Source: an uncultured bacterium
Lineage (GTDB): Bacteria; Cyanobacteriota; Vampirovibrionia; Gastranaerophilales; Gastranaerophilaceae
NCBI GenBank assembly: GCA_902780525.1
Contig: CACZFL010000006.1
Span: 96,650 to 160,649 of the forward strand
DNA length: 64,000 bases
Direction: 5' to 3'
How positions within the stretch are numbered: the first letter of the stretch is position 1; every line of letters starts with the position of its first letter. This document shows positions 26,930-42,310 of the stretch, in pieces. The notes beneath the pieces were generated by a model, which worked only from the letters and a program-made list of their open reading frames with translations, ran no database searches and was not told the origin of the DNA. The position numbers were made by a program, and so were the translations under genes.

Positions 26930-26974
26930 ATTAAAGAGTTTTGAAATTTTAGAGATTAAATATACTTTATATAT

Positions 26975-27098
26975 ATGTAAGACATAAACAAAGAAACATA
27001 ACACAACCTTTCATACAACCTACACACTAACCTTCTACACATGAGGAATTATTAAAAAAAGATTCCAAAACCTAATCACAGAGATTAGGTTTTTTTTT
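26975..27098 (+). ncRNA. candidate small RNA (CA-rich, about 120 nt), no ORF
   Basis: TTGAAA (26941)-N16-TACTTT (26963) promoter module, about 90 nt of G-poor C/A-rich sequence, then a strong terminator AACCTAATC-ACAGA-GATTAGGTT plus T8 (27069-27098). The longest ORF is 4 codons. The 5' end is estimated only. Confidence 0.45.
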
Positions 27099-27182
27099 GC
27101 TCAATCTAAAGTGCTTATAAATGCTTTACTACTGGTATAATTTGTAGTAATATTAGTATAGTGGAGAAAGAGTGCGTAAATT

Positions 27183-36409: not shown

Positions 36410-38299
36410 CTATTTCCCTAACATTACCATAAGAACGGATATATCAGCAGGTTTTACTCCGCCTATTCTGGAAGCCTGTGCAAGATTTGTCGGTCTGATT
36501 TTTTCTAATTTTTCCTTTGTTTCGGTTGATATGTGTTTAATCTGTGAGTAATCAATATTTGCAGGGATTCTGTATTTCTCAAGCTTTTCGCTCGTTTCAA
36601 CCTGAGCCAGCTGACGTTTAATGTATCCGTCATATTTAACGAGCACTTCAACCTCATCAGTTATGTCCTGTGACAGATTTAAAGTTCTTGTTTCTTCATC
36701 AACTTCTTTAAAGATATCATATGTGATATTTGGTCGTTTTAAAAGTTCTGCAAGTCTTATACCGTTTTCTATATGTTCTCCGCATCTTGCCAGAACTTCA
36801 TTTACTACTTCTGTTGCAGGTAGTTTAGTTTCCTGAAGCCTTGCAATTTCCCGTTTAATACTTTCCTGTTTATCCAGAAATCTTTGATACTGAGTATCGT
36901 CTATCAAGCCGATTTTATGTCCGAGTTCTGTTAATCTTTCATCAGCGTTATCCTGTCTTAAAAGAAGTCTGTATTCAGAACGCGAAGTCAACATTCTGTA
37001 TGGTTCCTGAATATCTTTTGTGACCAAATCATCAATAAGAGTTCCTGTATAAGAAGATGCTCTTGAAAGTTCAAGAGGCTCAGAACCGTTTATATAATTA
37101 ACTGAGTTAATACCCGCAATCAAACCTTGTGCGGCAGCTTCTTCGTATCCGCTTGTCCCGTTAATTTGACCTGCAAAGAATAAACCTTTTATGTCTTTTG
37201 ACATCAGAGAGTGTAAAGTCTGAACGGCAGGAACATAATCATATTCAACGGCGTAAGCAGGTTTTATAATATGAGCTTTTTCTAACCCCGGAAGTGAGCG
37301 GAGCATTTCCACCTGAACACATGCCGGCAAGCTTGTTGAAAAGCCTTGGATATAAACTTCATAAGTATTTAATCCTTCAGGTTCAATAAAAATATGATGG
37401 GAAGGATTTGATGCAAAACGCACAATTTTATCTTCAATAGACGGACAATATCTTGGTCCTACGCCATGGATTAATCCCTGATACATTGGTGATTTGTCAA
37501 GATTTGCTCTGATAATTGCGTGTGTTTCCTCGTTTGTTCTTGTTAAATAACAGGGATATTGCTGTCTGACGGGGCGATTTGGCTTAAACGAATAAAAACT
37601 CAGCTTGTCATCTCCGGGCTGAACTGTCATTTTAGAATAATCAATCGTTCTTTTATCAACTCTCGCCGGAGTTCCTGTTTTAAGTTTTTTTGTAACTATT
37701 CCGTGCTCACGCAAAGACTGAGATAAACCTATTGCAGCACGTTCTCCGAGTCTGCCGCCGTCATAACTGTTTAGTCCTACCCATAGCTTGCCTTCTAATG
37801 AAGTTCCAGTCGTAAGAATAATAGCTCTGCAAGAATAGTCCAAACCATACTCGTCTATTGCTCCTGTTATTTGCCCCTCTTTAACTTTAATATCAGTTAT
37901 ACAGGTTTGTTTTACCCAGATATTATCGGTACTTTCTATTATGTTCCGCATATAACGGGTGTATTCTTTTTTATCTGACTGAGCCCTTAAAGCTCTGACT
38001 GCAGGTCCTTTTGATGAGTTAAGCGTCTTCATTTGAAGATAAGTAGCGTCTGCAACTTCTCCCATAACTCCGCCCAAGGCATCTATTTCTCTTACCAAAG
38101 TAGATTTTGCAGGACCTCCAATTGCAGGATTACAAGGCTGAAGAGCTATATTATCAACGTTAAGGGTACACAATAGAACATTACACCCCCGGCGTGCAGC
38201 AGATATTGCTGCTTCGCATCCCGCATGCCCTGCACCTACAACAATTACATCAAATTTGTTATTTATATAATCCAGACTAGTCATAAAAACATTATACAA
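36410..38299 (-). CDS. mnmG: tRNA uridine-5-carboxymethylaminomethyl(34) synthesis enzyme MnmG (GidA)
   Basis: 629 aa. N-terminal FAD motif VIVVGAGHAGCEAA and full-length resemblance to GidA. Confidence 0.97.
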   Translation of the reverse strand: MYNVFMTSLDYINNKFDVIVVGAGHAGCEAAISAARRGCNVLLCTLNVDNIALQPCNPAIGGPAKSTLVREIDALGGVMGEVADATYLQMKTLNSSKGPAVRALRAQSDKKEYTRYMRNIIESTDNIWVKQTCITDIKVKEGQITGAIDEYGLDYSCRAIILTTGTSLEGKLWVGLNSYDGGRLGERAAIGLSQSLREHGIVTKKLKTGTPARVDKRTIDYSKMTVQPGDDKLSFYSFKPNRPVRQQYPCYLTRTNEETHAIIRANLDKSPMYQGLIHGVGPRYCPSIEDKIVRFASNPSHHIFIEPEGLNTYEVYIQGFSTSLPACVQVEMLRSLPGLEKAHIIKPAYAVEYDYVPAVQTLHSLMSKDIKGLFFAGQINGTSGYEEAAAQGLIAGINSVNYINGSEPLELSRASSYTGTLIDDLVTKDIQEPYRMLTSRSEYRLLLRQDNADERLTELGHKIGLIDDTQYQRFLDKQESIKREIARLQETKLPATEVVNEVLARCGEHIENGIRLAELLKRPNITYDIFKEVDEETRTLNLSQDITDEVEVLVKYDGYIKRQLAQVETSEKLEKYRIPANIDYSQIKHISTETKEKLEKIRPTNLAQASRIGGVKPADISVLMVMLGK

Positions 38300-38331
38300 C
38301 GGACAAAATTTTTATTTGCCCTTTTGCTCAT

Positions 38332-39351
38332 TTACTCTTCGTCGTCATCTTTTTCCATTGCACGGCGAAGAATATTGTCATCAATTTTTTTCTTGGAATA
38401 CTTTTTCTTTGATGCTTCCATAAGTTTTTCACTGGGGCGTTTTTTTGATTTCTTTTTTTGGGTAGGAAGTTCCTGTTTCGGAAGTCCGTTATTCAGTTCT
38501 TTATACCACATTGACCAGAGAATTGAACGAAGGGGTAATGTATATTGGATTAAAATCTGTGCGAATATTGTCTGAATGGTAAACAATGCCATATCCGAAT
38601 GTTTGATTGAAGTAAGCCCGTACATTGAAAAATCAAGTTCCGGAAGCAAATTGACAAAAGGCATAATCGCATTAGAAAAAGCTATATTTACTCCTGTTGC
38701 ATCAAAACCCTTAATGACAATTTGCGGAATAGCAATATATGTCAGTGTGCCAACGAGAGCGAAAAGCATAAATGTATCTCTAAAATGGCCCTTTACAAGC
38801 ATTAAACTCCTTTTAACGCAACCAAAAGGTGAAAGCTCCGGCTCAAATGTAAATATCTGAAATATCAAAACAAAATATATTGCAAATATTGCACAAATTA
38901 TCCACATAAGAGGACAAATTGCGATAAGTGAAAAAATCCCAAATAAAAGCCATAAACCGATGAATGAGAATGCTCTTCTTTTAATTAGTTCAGTATGAGC
39001 TTCAAAATCATATACTTTTCCTGAACGGAGCATATTTTCTAACATTGAGTTTACTGAACCATATGCTACAAGATATTCCCAAAACGCTTTGCAGAATATT
39101 GCCATTCCCGGAAGTATTACTAAAACAGATATTGTAATCAGTATTCCTAAATCATTTAACTGCGGATACTTGTCAATAAGTTTCGGCATATTAACCGTAT
39201 AAAGATATGTAGTAAAAAATGCAATGATTAGCCCTGCTATTTGTCCTAATACAGGAAATGTCATGTATTTTAAAAATTTATCAAAATTGGAAAAATATAA
39301 ACCTACGGATTCAGTAAAAATTCCCAAAGCGTTTTTTTGTTTTTTTGTCAT
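38332..39351 (-). CDS. polytopic membrane protein with Lys-rich C-terminal tail, function unknown
   Basis: 339 aa. At least six hydrophobic helices and a highly charged C-terminus (KKKSKKRPSEK...KKKYSKKK). Confidence 0.7.
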   Translation of the reverse strand: MTKKQKNALGIFTESVGLYFSNFDKFLKYMTFPVLGQIAGLIIAFFTTYLYTVNMPKLIDKYPQLNDLGILITISVLVILPGMAIFCKAFWEYLVAYGSVNSMLENMLRSGKVYDFEAHTELIKRRAFSFIGLWLLFGIFSLIAICPLMWIICAIFAIYFVLIFQIFTFEPELSPFGCVKRSLMLVKGHFRDTFMLFALVGTLTYIAIPQIVIKGFDATGVNIAFSNAIMPFVNLLPELDFSMYGLTSIKHSDMALFTIQTIFAQILIQYTLPLRSILWSMWYKELNNGLPKQELPTQKKKSKKRPSEKLMEASKKKYSKKKIDDNILRRAMEKDDDEE

Positions 39352-39390
39352 AAATTAAATCTCCCAAAATAATTTTATCATAATTTATGC

Positions 39391-39417
39391 AAAAAAAAGC
39401 CCGATTTTAAATCAGGC
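39391..39417 (-). terminator. intrinsic terminator after the 56-aa ORF
   Basis: Minus strand reads GCCTGAT-TTAAA-ATCGGGC followed by T8. The stem needs a U-G pair that exists only in the minus-strand RNA. Confidence 0.7.
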
Positions 39418-39487
39418 GCTAATAGATAAGTAAGTTTTGGGGAATTAAATTAGTTAAGTAAGATTAAGATTGGTATTATTTAAAAAC

Positions 39488-39658
39488 TTATTTTTTGACT
39501 CGTGAGATAAAAGTTACTCTCGACTTCATATCAATTGCGAATAATCGCATTTCGTCAACCAGAATATGTGACTGATCACCGTTGTCACCATCGATGAAAA
39601 ATTCTTTTGAGATTTGTGTTGCCATAGCATTAATGTTGTACGTGTTTAAAACTGCCAT
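39488..39658 (-). CDS. small ORF (56 aa), hypothetical
   Basis: Not in the track. GTGAGGT SD 5 nt upstream of the ATG at 39658. MAVLNTYNINAMATQISKEFFIDGDNGDQSHILVDEMRLFAIDMKSRVTFISRVKK. It has its own promoter module and terminator. Confidence 0.5.
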   Translation of the reverse strand: MAVLNTYNINAMATQISKEFFIDGDNGDQSHILVDEMRLFAIDMKSRVTFISRVKK

Positions 39659-39794
39659 AATACCTCACTTTACTCTCGGCTTGCCGCCAAAAGTGTTTTT
39701 CTTACTTGTATTTAATTGTTCATTGAAAAACTGACGGGTTGTATTGCCCGTTGTTTTTTGTTTGATTTTTACTCTCTTAAGTTTTTAATTTCGA

Positions 39795-39867
39795 CTTACA
39801 TATATATAAAGTATATATAACTTTTTGAATTTCAAACCTCTCTTGTTTTGTTACAAATCTTAACAAT
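39795..39867 (-). promoter_or_regulatory. HLR1-like box plus TTGAAA-N16-TACTTT-ATATATATGTAAG promoter module
   Basis: Plus strand has GTTACAAA-TC-TTAACAAT at 39850-39867. The minus strand has TTGAAA (39835-39830), TACTTT (39813-39808), then ATATATATGTAAG. Confidence 0.5.
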
Positions 39868-39932
39868 ACCTGCCTTTGATATTGCTGTTTATAGAGGGCA
39901 AAAGCCCAGTAAAATCAGGGGTTTTCAAAATA

Positions 39933-39951
39933 ATTGTAAAGAATTGTAAAT
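39933..39951 (+). promoter_or_regulatory. HLR1-like direct-repeat box
   Basis: ATTGTAAAGAATTGTAAAT. Reverse complement is TTTACAAT-TC-TTTACAAT. Confidence 0.5.
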
Positions 39952-39967
39952 AATATTCAAAAAATCC

Positions 39968-39994
39968 TAAAGTTTTCAGAATTTGTGCCGATAT
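39968..39994 (+). promoter_or_regulatory. sigma-28 (FliA/SigD)-type promoter candidate
   Basis: TAAA-N15-GCCGATAT matches the TAAA-N15-GCCGATAA consensus. It ends 28 nt upstream of the ATG at 40023. Confidence 0.5.
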
Positions 39995-40022
39995 ACATTA
40001 TATATATAAGCAGAGGTGTGTC

Positions 40023-40490
40023 ATGTCTAACTTCACTGTAAACGGAGTATATTCTTATACAAGTGCGAATATCTACTCTTATCTGGGTAGATTACCGACC
40101 AACAATGCTGCTTTAAAAGAAGCATTCAGGGAATTTGGTATTGCTCCTACAGGAAAAGAATCTGACTTAAAAAGACTTGAAAATGCGATGTACCGTGAGT
40201 ATTCAGAGCAGGTAAGAGAGCAAATCGATAACCAAAACTCTGAAAAAAATAATGTACCGTGGGCAGGAATACTTGCGCAGATAGGTATTCAGCCAACAGG
40301 TGATTATGACACGGATTATCAGGCATTTAACAATGCAATTCAGCTTCTGAGTCAGAGTGCAATTGATGGTCAGGCTATGGCATACTTTGCAGGACTGAGA
40401 AGCGAAGCACAAAGTGCTTTTGCTTCTTATTCTCCGTCGGATCAACAGGTACAAACTTTCTTCGATTATAAAGTTCAACATCTTTCATAA
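40023..40490 (+). CDS. hypothetical protein with two GIxPTG repeats (HeH/SAP-like)
   Basis: 155 aa. AGAGGTG SD. Internal repeat FGIAPTGKESDLKRLENAM / IGIQPTGDYDTDYQAFNNAI. Confidence 0.65.
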   Translation: MSNFTVNGVYSYTSANIYSYLGRLPTNNAALKEAFREFGIAPTGKESDLKRLENAMYREYSEQVREQIDNQNSEKNNVPWAGILAQIGIQPTGDYDTDYQAFNNAIQLLSQSAIDGQAMAYFAGLRSEAQSAFASYSPSDQQVQTFFDYKVQHLS

Positions 40491-40520
40491 AATAATTTGA
40501 AAGTGTTGTTAAAATTTGGG

Positions 40521-40545
40521 TGCCGCTATAGAGGTTATAGCGGCA
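40521..40545. terminator. hairpin between convergent genes (weak terminator)
   Basis: TGCCGCTATA-GAGGT-TATAGCGGCA is a perfect 10-bp stem, but it has poor U tracts on both strands. Confidence 0.4.
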
Positions 40546-40570
40546 TCACTGCGTTATTATATAATTTTAT

Positions 40571-42310
40571 TTACAGGGAATGAACAGCTGAGACAACAAT
40601 TTCTGCGGCATCTTCCGGTGTAATGTTGCTGAGCTCTTCACTATCCCTTTGTTTAAACTCAACCAAACCATCTGCAATACCTTTTCCGACGGTTATTCTA
40701 AACGGAAAACCTATTAAATCGGCATCTTTAAATTTAACACCGGCTCTTTCGTCTCTGTCGTCAAGAACTGCTTCAACGCCGTGTTTGTTGAGTGTTTTAT
40801 AAATATCTTCAGCAACTCTCATTTGTTGTTCGTCCTTTATATTAACAGGAATAACAACTGCATGGTAAGGAGCAATAGCTAGCGGCCAGATAATACCATG
40901 GTCATCGTGGTGTGCTTCAACAGCTGCCGCTGCAGTTCTTGTAACGCCGATACCATAACAACCCATTACGTATGGCTGAGTTTTTCCGTTCTGGTCAAGG
41001 AACACTGCATTCATTGGTTTAGAATACTTAGTTCCAAGCTGGAAAATGTTACCAACTTCAATACCTCTTGTAACTTTCAGAGGTTTTCCGCAAACAGGAC
41101 AAATATCTCCGGCTTCAACCAGTCGAATATCAGTAATTATTTCAGGTAAATCAACTTCAACTCCCCAATTGTAACCTACTCCGTGAACATCCTTTTTGTT
41201 TATGCCAATAACGAAGTTTTTCATATTTTTTACGGTTTCATCAGCAACAACTTTGATTTTGTATCCGTTGTATTCCTTCAAACCCTGAGGACCAATAAAC
41301 CCTTTCTCGCTATCGAATCCATTTACCCCCATCATTTCTTCGATTTCGCCTGCGGTTGCGATTCTGATATCAGTACCACCTACTGCATTCATAAGTTTTG
41401 TTTCTTCAACTGCTCTGTCAGCTCTTATCAAAGCTAAAACAGGGGCTTTATCAACGATATAAACTAATGTTTTTACAATAACCGTTGCAGGAATATTCAA
41501 AAACTCTGTAAGTTCTTCTATGGAATGAGTATTCGGAGTATCAACAATTTTTGCTTCTTTCCAGTCGCCTTCGATTTTAGCCTCAGGAAGCTTTGATACT
41601 GCGTGATTTGAGTTTGCCGCATAATCACATTCACAGTAGAATACATCATTTTCGCCTGAGTCCTGATCTGTAATTACCATAAATTCGTGGCTTACGCTTC
41701 CACCTATTGCACCTGAATCTGACTGAACTGCTTTTGTTTCAAGTCCGCAGCGTTTAAAGATTTTTGTATATGCACTCCACATATTCTTATATTCTTTTTC
41801 GAGTCCTTCCTGATCAACATCAAAAGAATAAGCGTCTTTCATAATGAACTCACGGCCTCTTAACAAACCAAAACGAGGGCGTCTTTCATCACGGAATTTA
41901 GACTGGATTTGGTATAAATTAACAGGTAATTGTTTGTATGATTTTAGTCCGTCACGTGCAATAGCTGTAATAATTTCTTCGTGCGTTGGTCCAAGGCACA
42001 TTTCTCTTCCGTGTCTGTCTTTCAGTCTCATGAGTTCACCACCGTATGCACCCCATCTTCCTGATTCTTCCCAAAGTTCTTTTGGCTGAACAAAAGGCAT
42101 AAGAAGTTCCTGTGCACCTGCTTTATCCATTTCTTCACGGATAATATTTTCAACTTTTCTGATTACTCTCCACATAAGAGGCAAATAGTTATATACACCC
42201 ATTGCAAGTTTTCTTATATATCCTGCTCTTACAAGAAGTTTATGCGAAATAACTTCTGCATCAGAAGGGTACTCTCTTAAAGTCTGTACAAACAATTTTG
42301 ACATTTTCAT
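40571..42310 (-). CDS. proS: proline--tRNA ligase (bacterial type with editing domain)
   Basis: 579 aa. Class II motifs, an INS editing insertion and a C-terminal anticodon-binding domain. Full-length resemblance to ProS. Confidence 0.96.
   Translation of the reverse strand: MKMSKLFVQTLREYPSDAEVISHKLLVRAGYIRKLAMGVYNYLPLMWRVIRKVENIIREEMDKAGAQELLMPFVQPKELWEESGRWGAYGGELMRLKDRHGREMCLGPTHEEIITAIARDGLKSYKQLPVNLYQIQSKFRDERRPRFGLLRGREFIMKDAYSFDVDQEGLEKEYKNMWSAYTKIFKRCGLETKAVQSDSGAIGGSVSHEFMVITDQDSGENDVFYCECDYAANSNHAVSKLPEAKIEGDWKEAKIVDTPNTHSIEELTEFLNIPATVIVKTLVYIVDKAPVLALIRADRAVEETKLMNAVGGTDIRIATAGEIEEMMGVNGFDSEKGFIGPQGLKEYNGYKIKVVADETVKNMKNFVIGINKKDVHGVGYNWGVEVDLPEIITDIRLVEAGDICPVCGKPLKVTRGIEVGNIFQLGTKYSKPMNAVFLDQNGKTQPYVMGCYGIGVTRTAAAAVEAHHDDHGIIWPLAIAPYHAVVIPVNIKDEQQMRVAEDIYKTLNKHGVEAVLDDRDERAGVKFKDADLIGFPFRITVGKGIADGLVEFKQRDSEELSNITPEDAAEIVVSAVHSL

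Follow-up and report, generated by a model that had tools for sequence, protein, structure and literature searches.

To our knowledge, almost nothing is known about gene regulation in the Melainabacteria, the uncultured gut and rumen kin of the cyanobacteria, and a compact locus on the minus strand at positions 39391–39867 of the analyzed DNA (a stretch of 64,000 nucleotides (nt), hereafter the window) raises the question of what it encodes and which of its parts might act in regulation. A first-pass annotation had described this locus as an autonomous unit, in which a protein of 56 amino acids (aa) follows a leader with a premature terminator, and had suggested riboregulation through that leader. 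The locus is best explained as a single monocistronic gene that belongs to a clade-specific regulon of bovine-gut Gastranaerophilales, which are non-photosynthetic Melainabacteria; four DNA runs from one bovine-gut study contain the locus nearly whole. The unit is an ordinary-looking, uncharacterized small-protein gene, and the real lead is the ultraconserved, guanine-free 3′ untranslated region (UTR) behind its open reading frame (ORF). The evidence for a function at the RNA level lies in this part, which was absent from the first-pass annotation, and the search for riboregulation shifts from the leader to the 3′ UTR. On balance, we regard it as probable that the whole is best explained as a regulon-promoter unit with a 56-aa protein, an expanded leader, a single-stranded recognition module in the 3′ UTR, and a conserved terminator.

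The core of the 3′ UTR (39420–39479, minus strand; ATAATACCAATCTTAATCTTACTTAACTAATTTAATTCCCCAAAACTTACTTATCTATTA) comprises 60 nt without a single guanine and carries two CUUACUUA words together with AAUUCCCC. Between the window and the related loci L003, L004, and L005, all 60 of these positions are identical, at an identity of 53–65% for their four-fold degenerate sites. Pooled over the genus, the 3′ UTR reaches 75% identity versus 40% for the four-fold sites. Measured against these silent sites, the core is demonstrably conserved far beyond neutral expectation, and a recent transfer does not explain this conservation because the adjoining ORF is saturated at silent sites. Guanine accounts for 0.9% of 2230 aligned 3′ UTR bases, in a genome with a G+C content of 35%, about half of which is guanine. 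The word TTAATTCCC(C) is nearly invariant, other genera included, and the copy number of the CUUA repeat varies, with at least seven copies in L030. Within the genome the core occurs as a single copy, and no counterpart is listed in Rfam. With regards to structure, RNAalifold predicted no pairs for the 3′ UTR alignment, not even those of the terminator because of gaps in its loop, and thus no consensus structure upstream of the terminator. A covariance model built from the 3′ UTR and the terminator returned one match per genome, always directly behind the small ORF, and finds family members that protein searches miss.

We infer a function of the 3′ UTR from its conservation and its layout, and the core is probably a single-stranded regulatory RNA module. 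The layout resembles that of a seed, since a G-free, unpaired region rich in C, U, and A, with a UCCC-type word, lies directly upstream of the terminator. Comparable seed layouts occur in small RNAs of Gram-positive bacteria, in RNAIII, and in the icaR 3′ UTR, and functional bacterial 3′ UTRs have been reviewed (PMC3868564, PMC7821165). A conserved single-stranded seed next to the terminator, preserved beyond neutral expectation, is the property by which a dual-function or 3′ UTR-derived small RNA would be recognized, and it is present at this locus. What is new here is both an orphan small-protein family and an undescribed RNA element.

The ORF (39488–39658, minus strand) encodes a soluble 56-aa protein of an unnamed family and lies below the 60-aa cutoff of the original ORF list, as had been pointed out before; it is a real gene. 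The Shine–Dalgarno sequence (SD) GTGAGGT at 39662–39668 precedes the ATG at 39658, and GAGG(T/C) is found 4–9 nt upstream of the ATG in nearly all homologous loci, from which we infer that the mRNA would be translated from a normal SD into a cytoplasmic protein. A translated search found the ORF in 36 of 36 congeneric genomes with 67–98% identity and no internal stops, and a profile search added 20 of 20 further genomes, so that all 56 searched genomes of the genus carry it. The pairwise ratio of nonsynonymous to synonymous substitutions (dN/dS) is ~0.085, or ~0.09 when rounded; between L001 and its closest relative L002, dN is 0.0075 and dS is 0.72. At every conserved residue the synonymous codons are free to vary, and Leu, Ser, and Arg codons vary along the whole ORF; therefore, it is the protein that is constrained rather than its nucleotides. 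This comparison of related genomes establishes the ORF as a conserved gene under purifying selection. Invariant within the genus are YNINAMATQIS and DEMRLFA-D-K-RVTFISR, accompanied by whole-codon insertions and deletions in an acidic loop, and the best-conserved parts of the protein overall are YNINAMATQIS and D(K/R)S..L..EM..FA.

Outside the genus, the profile search detected diverged homologues of 51–57 aa in g36 (7/7), g43 (5/5), and g51, and the covariance model of the 3′ end added units from g24 and g35 whose divergence is greater yet and which the protein profile had missed. All of these share the promoter, the size, and the 3′ module, and residues M1, D28, S30, L33, M37, and A41 are invariant in all of them. 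Judged from these searches, the family spans at least five further genera of the same Gastranaerophilales family. An exhaustive search of 1.84 billion representative proteins with a hidden Markov model returned 14 members, and a broader profile returned 794 clusters at 90% identity, which are all short, all annotated as hypothetical, and free of Pfam domains throughout. The best Pfam match, HEAT_Ints3_C, reached E = 0.0015 in 3 of 18 members and was taken as a chance match. AlphaFold2 predicts a hairpin of two helices (residues 9–19 and 30–55), and most likely the protein acts through binding a larger partner. Foldseek found nothing in the PDB with an E-value below 6.8 for this low-confidence model, and the ESM Atlas gave no usable match for the protein. 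Resemblances to EF-hands and to NblA that had been noted by eye were dropped, as the motif spacing is unsuited and no profile matches.

Some irregular family members were seen along the way. Three genomes of the genus contain two near-identical copies of the unit on separate contigs without the divergent 155-aa gene that adjoins the unit in the window, namely G008 (C3 and C5; L016/L017), G009 (C7 and C15; L019/L020), and G013 (C47 and C59; L027/L028), which could be recent duplications or assembly duplicates. The proteins P0008 (208 aa), P0011 (85 aa), and P0013 (269 aa) either join the C-terminal half of the small protein to unrelated sequence or carry five VDEMRLISQW-like repeats; they are probably chimeras from assembly or gene calling.

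Upstream of the gene, the minus strand between 39200 and 40200 was read again, and every element that the first-pass annotation had listed was found in its place. An upstream activator box (39849–39867), the direct repeat TGTTAAG-ATT-TGTAACA (ATTGTTAAGATTTGTAAC at 39867–39850), lies ~−65 to −48 from the proposed start. Its reverse complement, GTTACAAA-TC-TTAACAAT, agrees with the HLR1 consensus at 15 of 16 positions and contains the two (G/T)TTACA(T/A)(T/A) repeats 2 nt apart that define HLR1. The box is followed by the core promoter at 39808–39835, which consists of TTGAAA (39835–39830), a 16-nt spacer, and TACTTT (39813–39808), and by an invariant block of 18 nt, ACTTTATATATATGTAAG (39795–39812), that covers the −10 region and the proposed start (~39799–39803). 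We place the start of transcription 5–9 nt past TACTTT, at ~39800. Transcription would thus begin from a rigid promoter of HLR1-like box, TGAAAT, N16, and TACTTT with an invariant initial AUGUAAG, and the box would presumably be bound by an activator of the OmpR/RpaB type. Homologues of RpaB and NblS have been reported from Melainabacteria (PMC3787301).

This arrangement is kept with little change. Nearly all loci, those of other genera included, have the box as TGT(T/A)AAG-N3-TGTAACAA ahead of the homologous gene, and the shared layout continues with ~12 nt, TGAAAT, N16, and ACTTTATATATATGTAAG. TGAAAT and its spacing are preserved in all alignable loci, and ACTTTATATATATGTAAG is invariant or shows at most two substitutions in the related loci for which the promoter region is available, except for the g35 unit L055. 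That unit (G146:C9:71281-72485, positions 530–905) retains both the box and TGAAAT along with a 56-aa ORF and the terminator CCUGAUU, with AAAATTGTTTATAGAGGAG in place of the ACTTTATATATATGTAAG block and a CA-rich 3′ UTR. Exact copies of the 18-nt core occur twice in the window versus 0.1 expected, the other copy driving a candidate small RNA at 26964, and the whole promoter module occurs 17 times in the genome versus 0 times for the reversed control. The HLR1-like box, the TTGAAA-N16-TACTTT module, the SD, and the terminator had all been read correctly at first pass, and the promoter is confirmed as that of a regulon. Apart from these sites, a second promoter class was observed in G000 (C2:37, C4:35151, C5:31511, C5:72910, C11:34169, C17:56201, and C21:7196), which has the same invariant ATACTTTATATATATGTAAG block with AAAAAGGCAATTT instead of TGAAAT; the upstream repeat is reversed (TTTACA..CTTAACAA) in the copies on C2 and C17, at C5:72910, and on C21.

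At its other end, the transcript stops at a conserved intrinsic terminator (39391–39419, minus strand), GCGCCUGAUU-UAA-AAUCGGGC followed by U8, of which the stem and T8 (GCCTGATTTAAAATCGGGC) occupy 39417–39391. It was detected by a terminator scan and is established by covariation. The stem has 8 bp and the loop 3 nt, a U-tract follows directly, and compensatory changes keep the helix intact: counted over 40 loci against a specified structure (and not taken from the RNAalifold output), 95.8% of cells in the helix are paired, and three of the eight pairs are changed on both sides. The score of this helix was reached by 0 of 500 shuffles, and slid controls yielded 19–53%. The sequence is conserved as well (GCGCCUGAUU...AAUCAGGC), and nearly every unit examined has retained the terminator. 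Within the 1.6 kb around the unit, four terminator-like sites were counted versus 0.6 expected. The description as an autonomous unit from promoter to terminator is borne out by these data. As a side observation, the best non-self match in the window to the model of the 3′ UTR and terminator is the terminator of the candidate small RNA (ACCUAAUC...GAUUAGG with U9; 27070–27105, plus strand), which at E = 0.42 falls short of significance; a terminator type common to both regulon RNAs is possible. The CA-rich 3′ UTR of L055 has ACACACTAAC in common with the same candidate small RNA.

No other part of the unit is as poorly conserved as the leader, to which riboregulation had been ascribed. This leader spans ~142 nt (39659–39800, minus strand) and is hypervariable between species. 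From GTAAG to ATG, its length ranges from 29 to 236 nt over 36 distinct loci; at least eight species have leaders of 29–42 nt, and in the same genome, leaders of ~26–32 nt precede the other genes with this promoter. In such short leaders (~26–42 nt, from these species and the same-promoter genes), AAGAGAGG serves as the SD. The long leader therefore looks expanded from a short ancestral one. Similarity to relatives is limited to the first ~38 and the last ~55 nt, and nothing similar to the mid-leader that bears the hairpin occurs in the 40 related loci. The leader is neither mobile nor repeated, being single copy in the genome. Close to the ribosome-binding site, just upstream of it, lies a hairpin of 9 bp (39672–39694; −12.5 kcal mol−1, z = −3.7), for which a homologous hairpin with altered bases was recognized by eye in L002. 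The only leader-internal word common to most relatives is AAGTAAGA (39700–39707).

The question whether the hairpin could act as an attenuator or riboswitch, ending transcription early and thereby gating expression of the peptide, must be answered from the same comparison. The hairpin with its U-run certainly exists: the terminator scan picked up ACGGG/CCCGU (39751–39734) with CAG and U5 (39730–39726) at 39726–39751, and the complete leader has a more stable fold than its shuffles (z = −2.9). However, the hairpin is species-specific and is lacking already in L002, the closest relative, whose protein is 98% identical; a terminator-like hairpin by the loose definition used for the scan of the 1.6-kb region is found in only 2 of 29 long leaders, and leaders of 29–42 nt offer no room for one. 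It has a 5-bp stem and an 8-nt loop and is flanked by an A-run and a U-run. On the minus strand it reaches −9.8 kcal mol−1, with a spacer of 3 nt before T5, and the plus strand gives the stronger fold (−15.5 kcal mol−1, then T6GT3); hence, the structure is not specific to attenuation on the minus strand. A search of 38000–41500 against Rfam 15 at permissive thresholds gave 0 matches. The variability of the leader, the unique hairpin, and the missing Rfam match together leave a conserved attenuator or riboswitch unsupported, since neither a terminator nor an alternative structure is conserved in the leaders of relatives, and we consider this mode of action improbable, with early termination conceivable for this one species. 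By comparison with its relatives, the long leader with its terminator-like hairpin appears rather to be a lineage-specific expansion of an ancestral leader of ~30 nt.

The better fold on the plus strand raises a second alternative, by which the hairpin would terminate an antisense RNA over the small ORF, as in type I toxin–antitoxin systems. The hairpin is a good terminator in that orientation, and a plus-strand promoter-like site with 10 of 12 matches lies at 39345–39373. However, promoter-like sites in the region occur at chance level (9 vs. 7.2 expected), the hairpin is not conserved, and the plus strand shows no conservation other than the complement of the 3′ UTR. Moreover, the protein is hydrophilic and has no membrane helix, unlike type I toxins. 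An antisense system is thus scarcely to be expected here.

Among the points in favor of riboregulation through the leader is a recurrent module in many relatives (L010, L011, L013, L016, L019, L022–L024, L027, L032, and L036, upstream of position 1501 in gene orientation), in which one or two copies of a variable hairpin with GGCUUAAGUAA(A/G)AAC (GGCTTAAGTAA(A/G)AAC) directly behind it are present. Of 21 instances, 14 have a hairpin that extends exactly to the motif, with differing stem sequences. In five related genomes searched for GGCTTAAGTAA, five matches were obtained in three genomes, solely in this leader; in the genome of the window, the word is not a genome-wide repeat (three copies). 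Of this module, the window retains only AAGUAAGA (39707–39700), its form of the shared leader word, and the 9-bp hairpin before the SD. The module may be a cleavage or binding site.

For the 3′ UTR, several modes of action are to be weighed. It would work as a single-stranded recognition module, either as a base-pairing seed or as a platform for protein binding, and would either steer the fate of its own mRNA in cis or, once processed, act in trans. As a tentative possibility, the 3′ domain (the two CUUACUUA words, UUCCCC, and the sequence-conserved terminator) may belong to a trans-acting dual-function RNA that pairs without Hfq, either released or in place. Conceivable targets are the 5′ GUAAGA leader that the regulon transcripts have in common and the UAAGUAAG modules of its own leader. 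No conserved internal promoter was found at the end of the ORF, where synonymous sites vary freely. A protein-binding or stability element takes the probability that is left beside pairing in trans and pairing in cis. CsrA is encoded in the genome (C10:64847-65002), but it requires GGA, which an RNA free of G does not offer. A rut site was also considered on account of the suitable composition, but a search of the genome (98.6% complete) detected no Rho RNA-binding domain, whereas 9 of 14 control genomes have one; the lack of a detectable Rho argues against such a site.

Pairing in cis would follow the example of icaR mRNA from S. aureus, in which the UCCCC motif of the 3′ UTR pairs with the SD in the 5′ UTR (PMC3868564). 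Here, the 3′ UTR would pair with its own 5′ UTR and thereby block the ribosome-binding site or control decay, with CUUACUU opposite the leader sequence AAGUAAG and AUAAUACC opposite GGUAUUAU in the SD spacer. In the window, the duplex reaches −23.8 kcal mol−1 versus −12.8 ± 3.1 kcal mol−1 for dinucleotide shuffles, none of 200 of which attain it. The best-conserved leader word (U)UAAGUAAG(A) is an exact complement of the best-conserved 3′ UTR word CUUACUUA, and AAGTAAGA at 39700–39707 is complementary to UCUUACUU in the 3′ UTR. In addition, GGTATTAT/ATAATACC forms 8 bp with apparent co-changes in L010 (GGTATTAA/TTAATACC) and L019 (GGTATTT/AAATACC). However, the duplex is not better than shuffles over 36 loci (mean z = −0.3), and matches of 7–8 nt are common by chance in AT-rich RNA. 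The pairing between SD and ATACC has at most 6 bp, or its motif is missing, in over half of the loci, and species with short leaders that have no UAAGUAAG word still keep the 3′ UTR. UUCCCC, moreover, is not complementary to the GAGG SD of the gene itself. Regulation by this pairing is therefore unlikely, though less so than early termination in the leader.

Transcription itself is hinted at, if weakly, by RNA contigs. In metatranscriptome X7, two short contigs with at least 99% identity cover 39448–39623 and 40077–40449, with the leader and the terminator outside the coverage; they cover this gene and its divergent neighbor and not the ends of the flanking genes within the examined stretch. 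In another RNA run, a contig of a relative extends over 39415–39578, and RNA run X18 contained no contig on the examined stretch.

Against the overall account of a regulon unit with an RNA module in its 3′ UTR, several points have to be set. The transcription start and the protein are predicted, and a processed 3′ fragment is hypothetical. No Hfq domain was found in the genome at its completeness of 98.6%. Sites of at least 11 nt in the own genome that are complementary to the 3′ UTR are not in excess once the locus is removed (162 eleven-mers, of which ~50 stem from the antisense strand of the locus itself, vs. 103 in the control), and no trans target is indicated. Neither does the icaR-like duplex hold over the 36 loci. 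A functional clue to the protein is not given either, as Pfam, NCBIfam, PHROGs, and the PDB sequences yielded no usable match for the single protein or for profiles, and its structure model is of modest to low confidence (predicted local distance difference test score, pLDDT, of 67.5). Finally, many species keep long leaders that share the module of hairpin and CUUAAGUAA, whose word is confined to this leader in the five genomes searched, and some leader function other than that of the flagged hairpin is possible.

The neighborhood offers one more explanation. On the plus strand, a divergent orphan gene of 155 aa (40023–40490) has a box TGTAAAG-AAT-TGTAAAT and a sigma-28-type promoter TAAA-N15-GCCGATAT (39968–39994), followed by ACATTATATAT. 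This promoter, which had been noticed at first pass, is indeed present, and the whole arrangement (39920–40490) is kept in 26 related loci of the genus, with the protein 61–88% identical across 21. A predicted complex between the 155-aa and 56-aa proteins scored 0.00 without controls, which weighs neither way. The N-terminus of the peptide had been described as loosely similar to those of flagellar type III export substrates; as such a substrate, or as a FlgM-like regulator, the peptide would be coupled to the sigma-28-driven neighbor. The genome is flagellated, with 11 flagellin-N matches over the Pfam cut-off, and by eye MAVLNTYNINAMATQ at the N-terminus loosely resembles MAITVNTNVSSMIVQ of its own flagellins. 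However, a comparison of the family profile with a flagellin of the same genome by hhalign gave a probability of 0.06%, and neither FlgM nor any other Pfam family matched. The unit occurs in g43 (5/5) and g24, where flagellin was not found (0/5 and 0/14, respectively), and was not found in the flagellated genera g33, g37, g39, g40, and g45. At least 10 copies within the genus, and every copy in other genera, have no such neighbor. With neither co-occurrence with the apparatus nor a relation to flagellin N-termini or FlgM, a flagellar role is very unlikely, and the suggestion is not upheld. Among the full-length flagellin paralogues of G000, two short frames of 97 and 95 aa (G000:C8:71083-71310 and C8:74403-74642) were seen that consist of the flagellin N-terminal domain only.

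The unit offers a clean and compact test object, as it combines a rigid, activator-dependent promoter, a strongly selected small protein, and an RNA element with conservation beyond that of silent sites. The RpaB-like regulon extends to at least one small protein in addition to a small RNA. If the 3′ domain is regulatory, the unit would add a new dual-function RNA to a phylum from which neither Hfq nor Rho is known. If it pairs in trans, it would be part of the first riboregulatory circuit to be described in Melainabacteria, tied to an RpaB-like regulon that outlived photosynthesis. Apart from the candidate small RNA at 26964, we know of no described riboregulators in the phylum.

For a better classification, the unit can be compared with four known systems. 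In cyanobacteria, an activating box is positioned at ~−65 to −48, and the promoters of the HLR1/RpaB type (hli, psbA, PsrR1) share with the present one the (G/T)TTACA(T/A)(T/A)-N2-repeat, matched here at 15 of 16 positions and at that very distance. Like the cyanobacterial regulon, the one described here holds small proteins and a small RNA. Unlike it, it belongs to an organism without photosynthesis, its core of TGAAAT-N16-TACTTT and invariant ATATATGTAAG differs, and binding of an RpaB homologue is putative. The protein invites a comparison with NblA, prompted by size, fold class, and regulon alone. NblA is a helix-loop-helix adaptor of 59 aa that cyanobacteria express in response to the NblS stress pathway, and both are two-helix proteins of ~56–60 aa. 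However, the 56-aa protein has no sequence match to Pfam NblA or any PDB chain, its organism has no phycobilisomes, and it is not a member of the NblA family.

On the RNA side, the likeness to icaR is that a monocistronic gene of regulator size carries a conserved C-rich motif in its 3′ UTR, together with a duplex in the window far above chance; unlike in icaR, UUCCCC is not complementary to the SD of its own gene, and the pairing is not supported across the family. The dual-function RNAs RNAIII/hld of S. aureus, SR1/SR1P of B. subtilis, and SgrS/SgrT of E. coli encode a small protein and a C-rich base-pairing domain. In comparison with these, the protein of the present locus is larger than most such peptides and is itself under strong selection, Hfq was not found, and the dual role is that of a candidate. 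The features in common are a short autonomous transcript that encodes a small protein, a G-poor stretch next to the terminator that is conserved and unpaired and contains a UCCC-type word, and, in the present unit, an RNA part whose conservation equals or exceeds that of the protein part.

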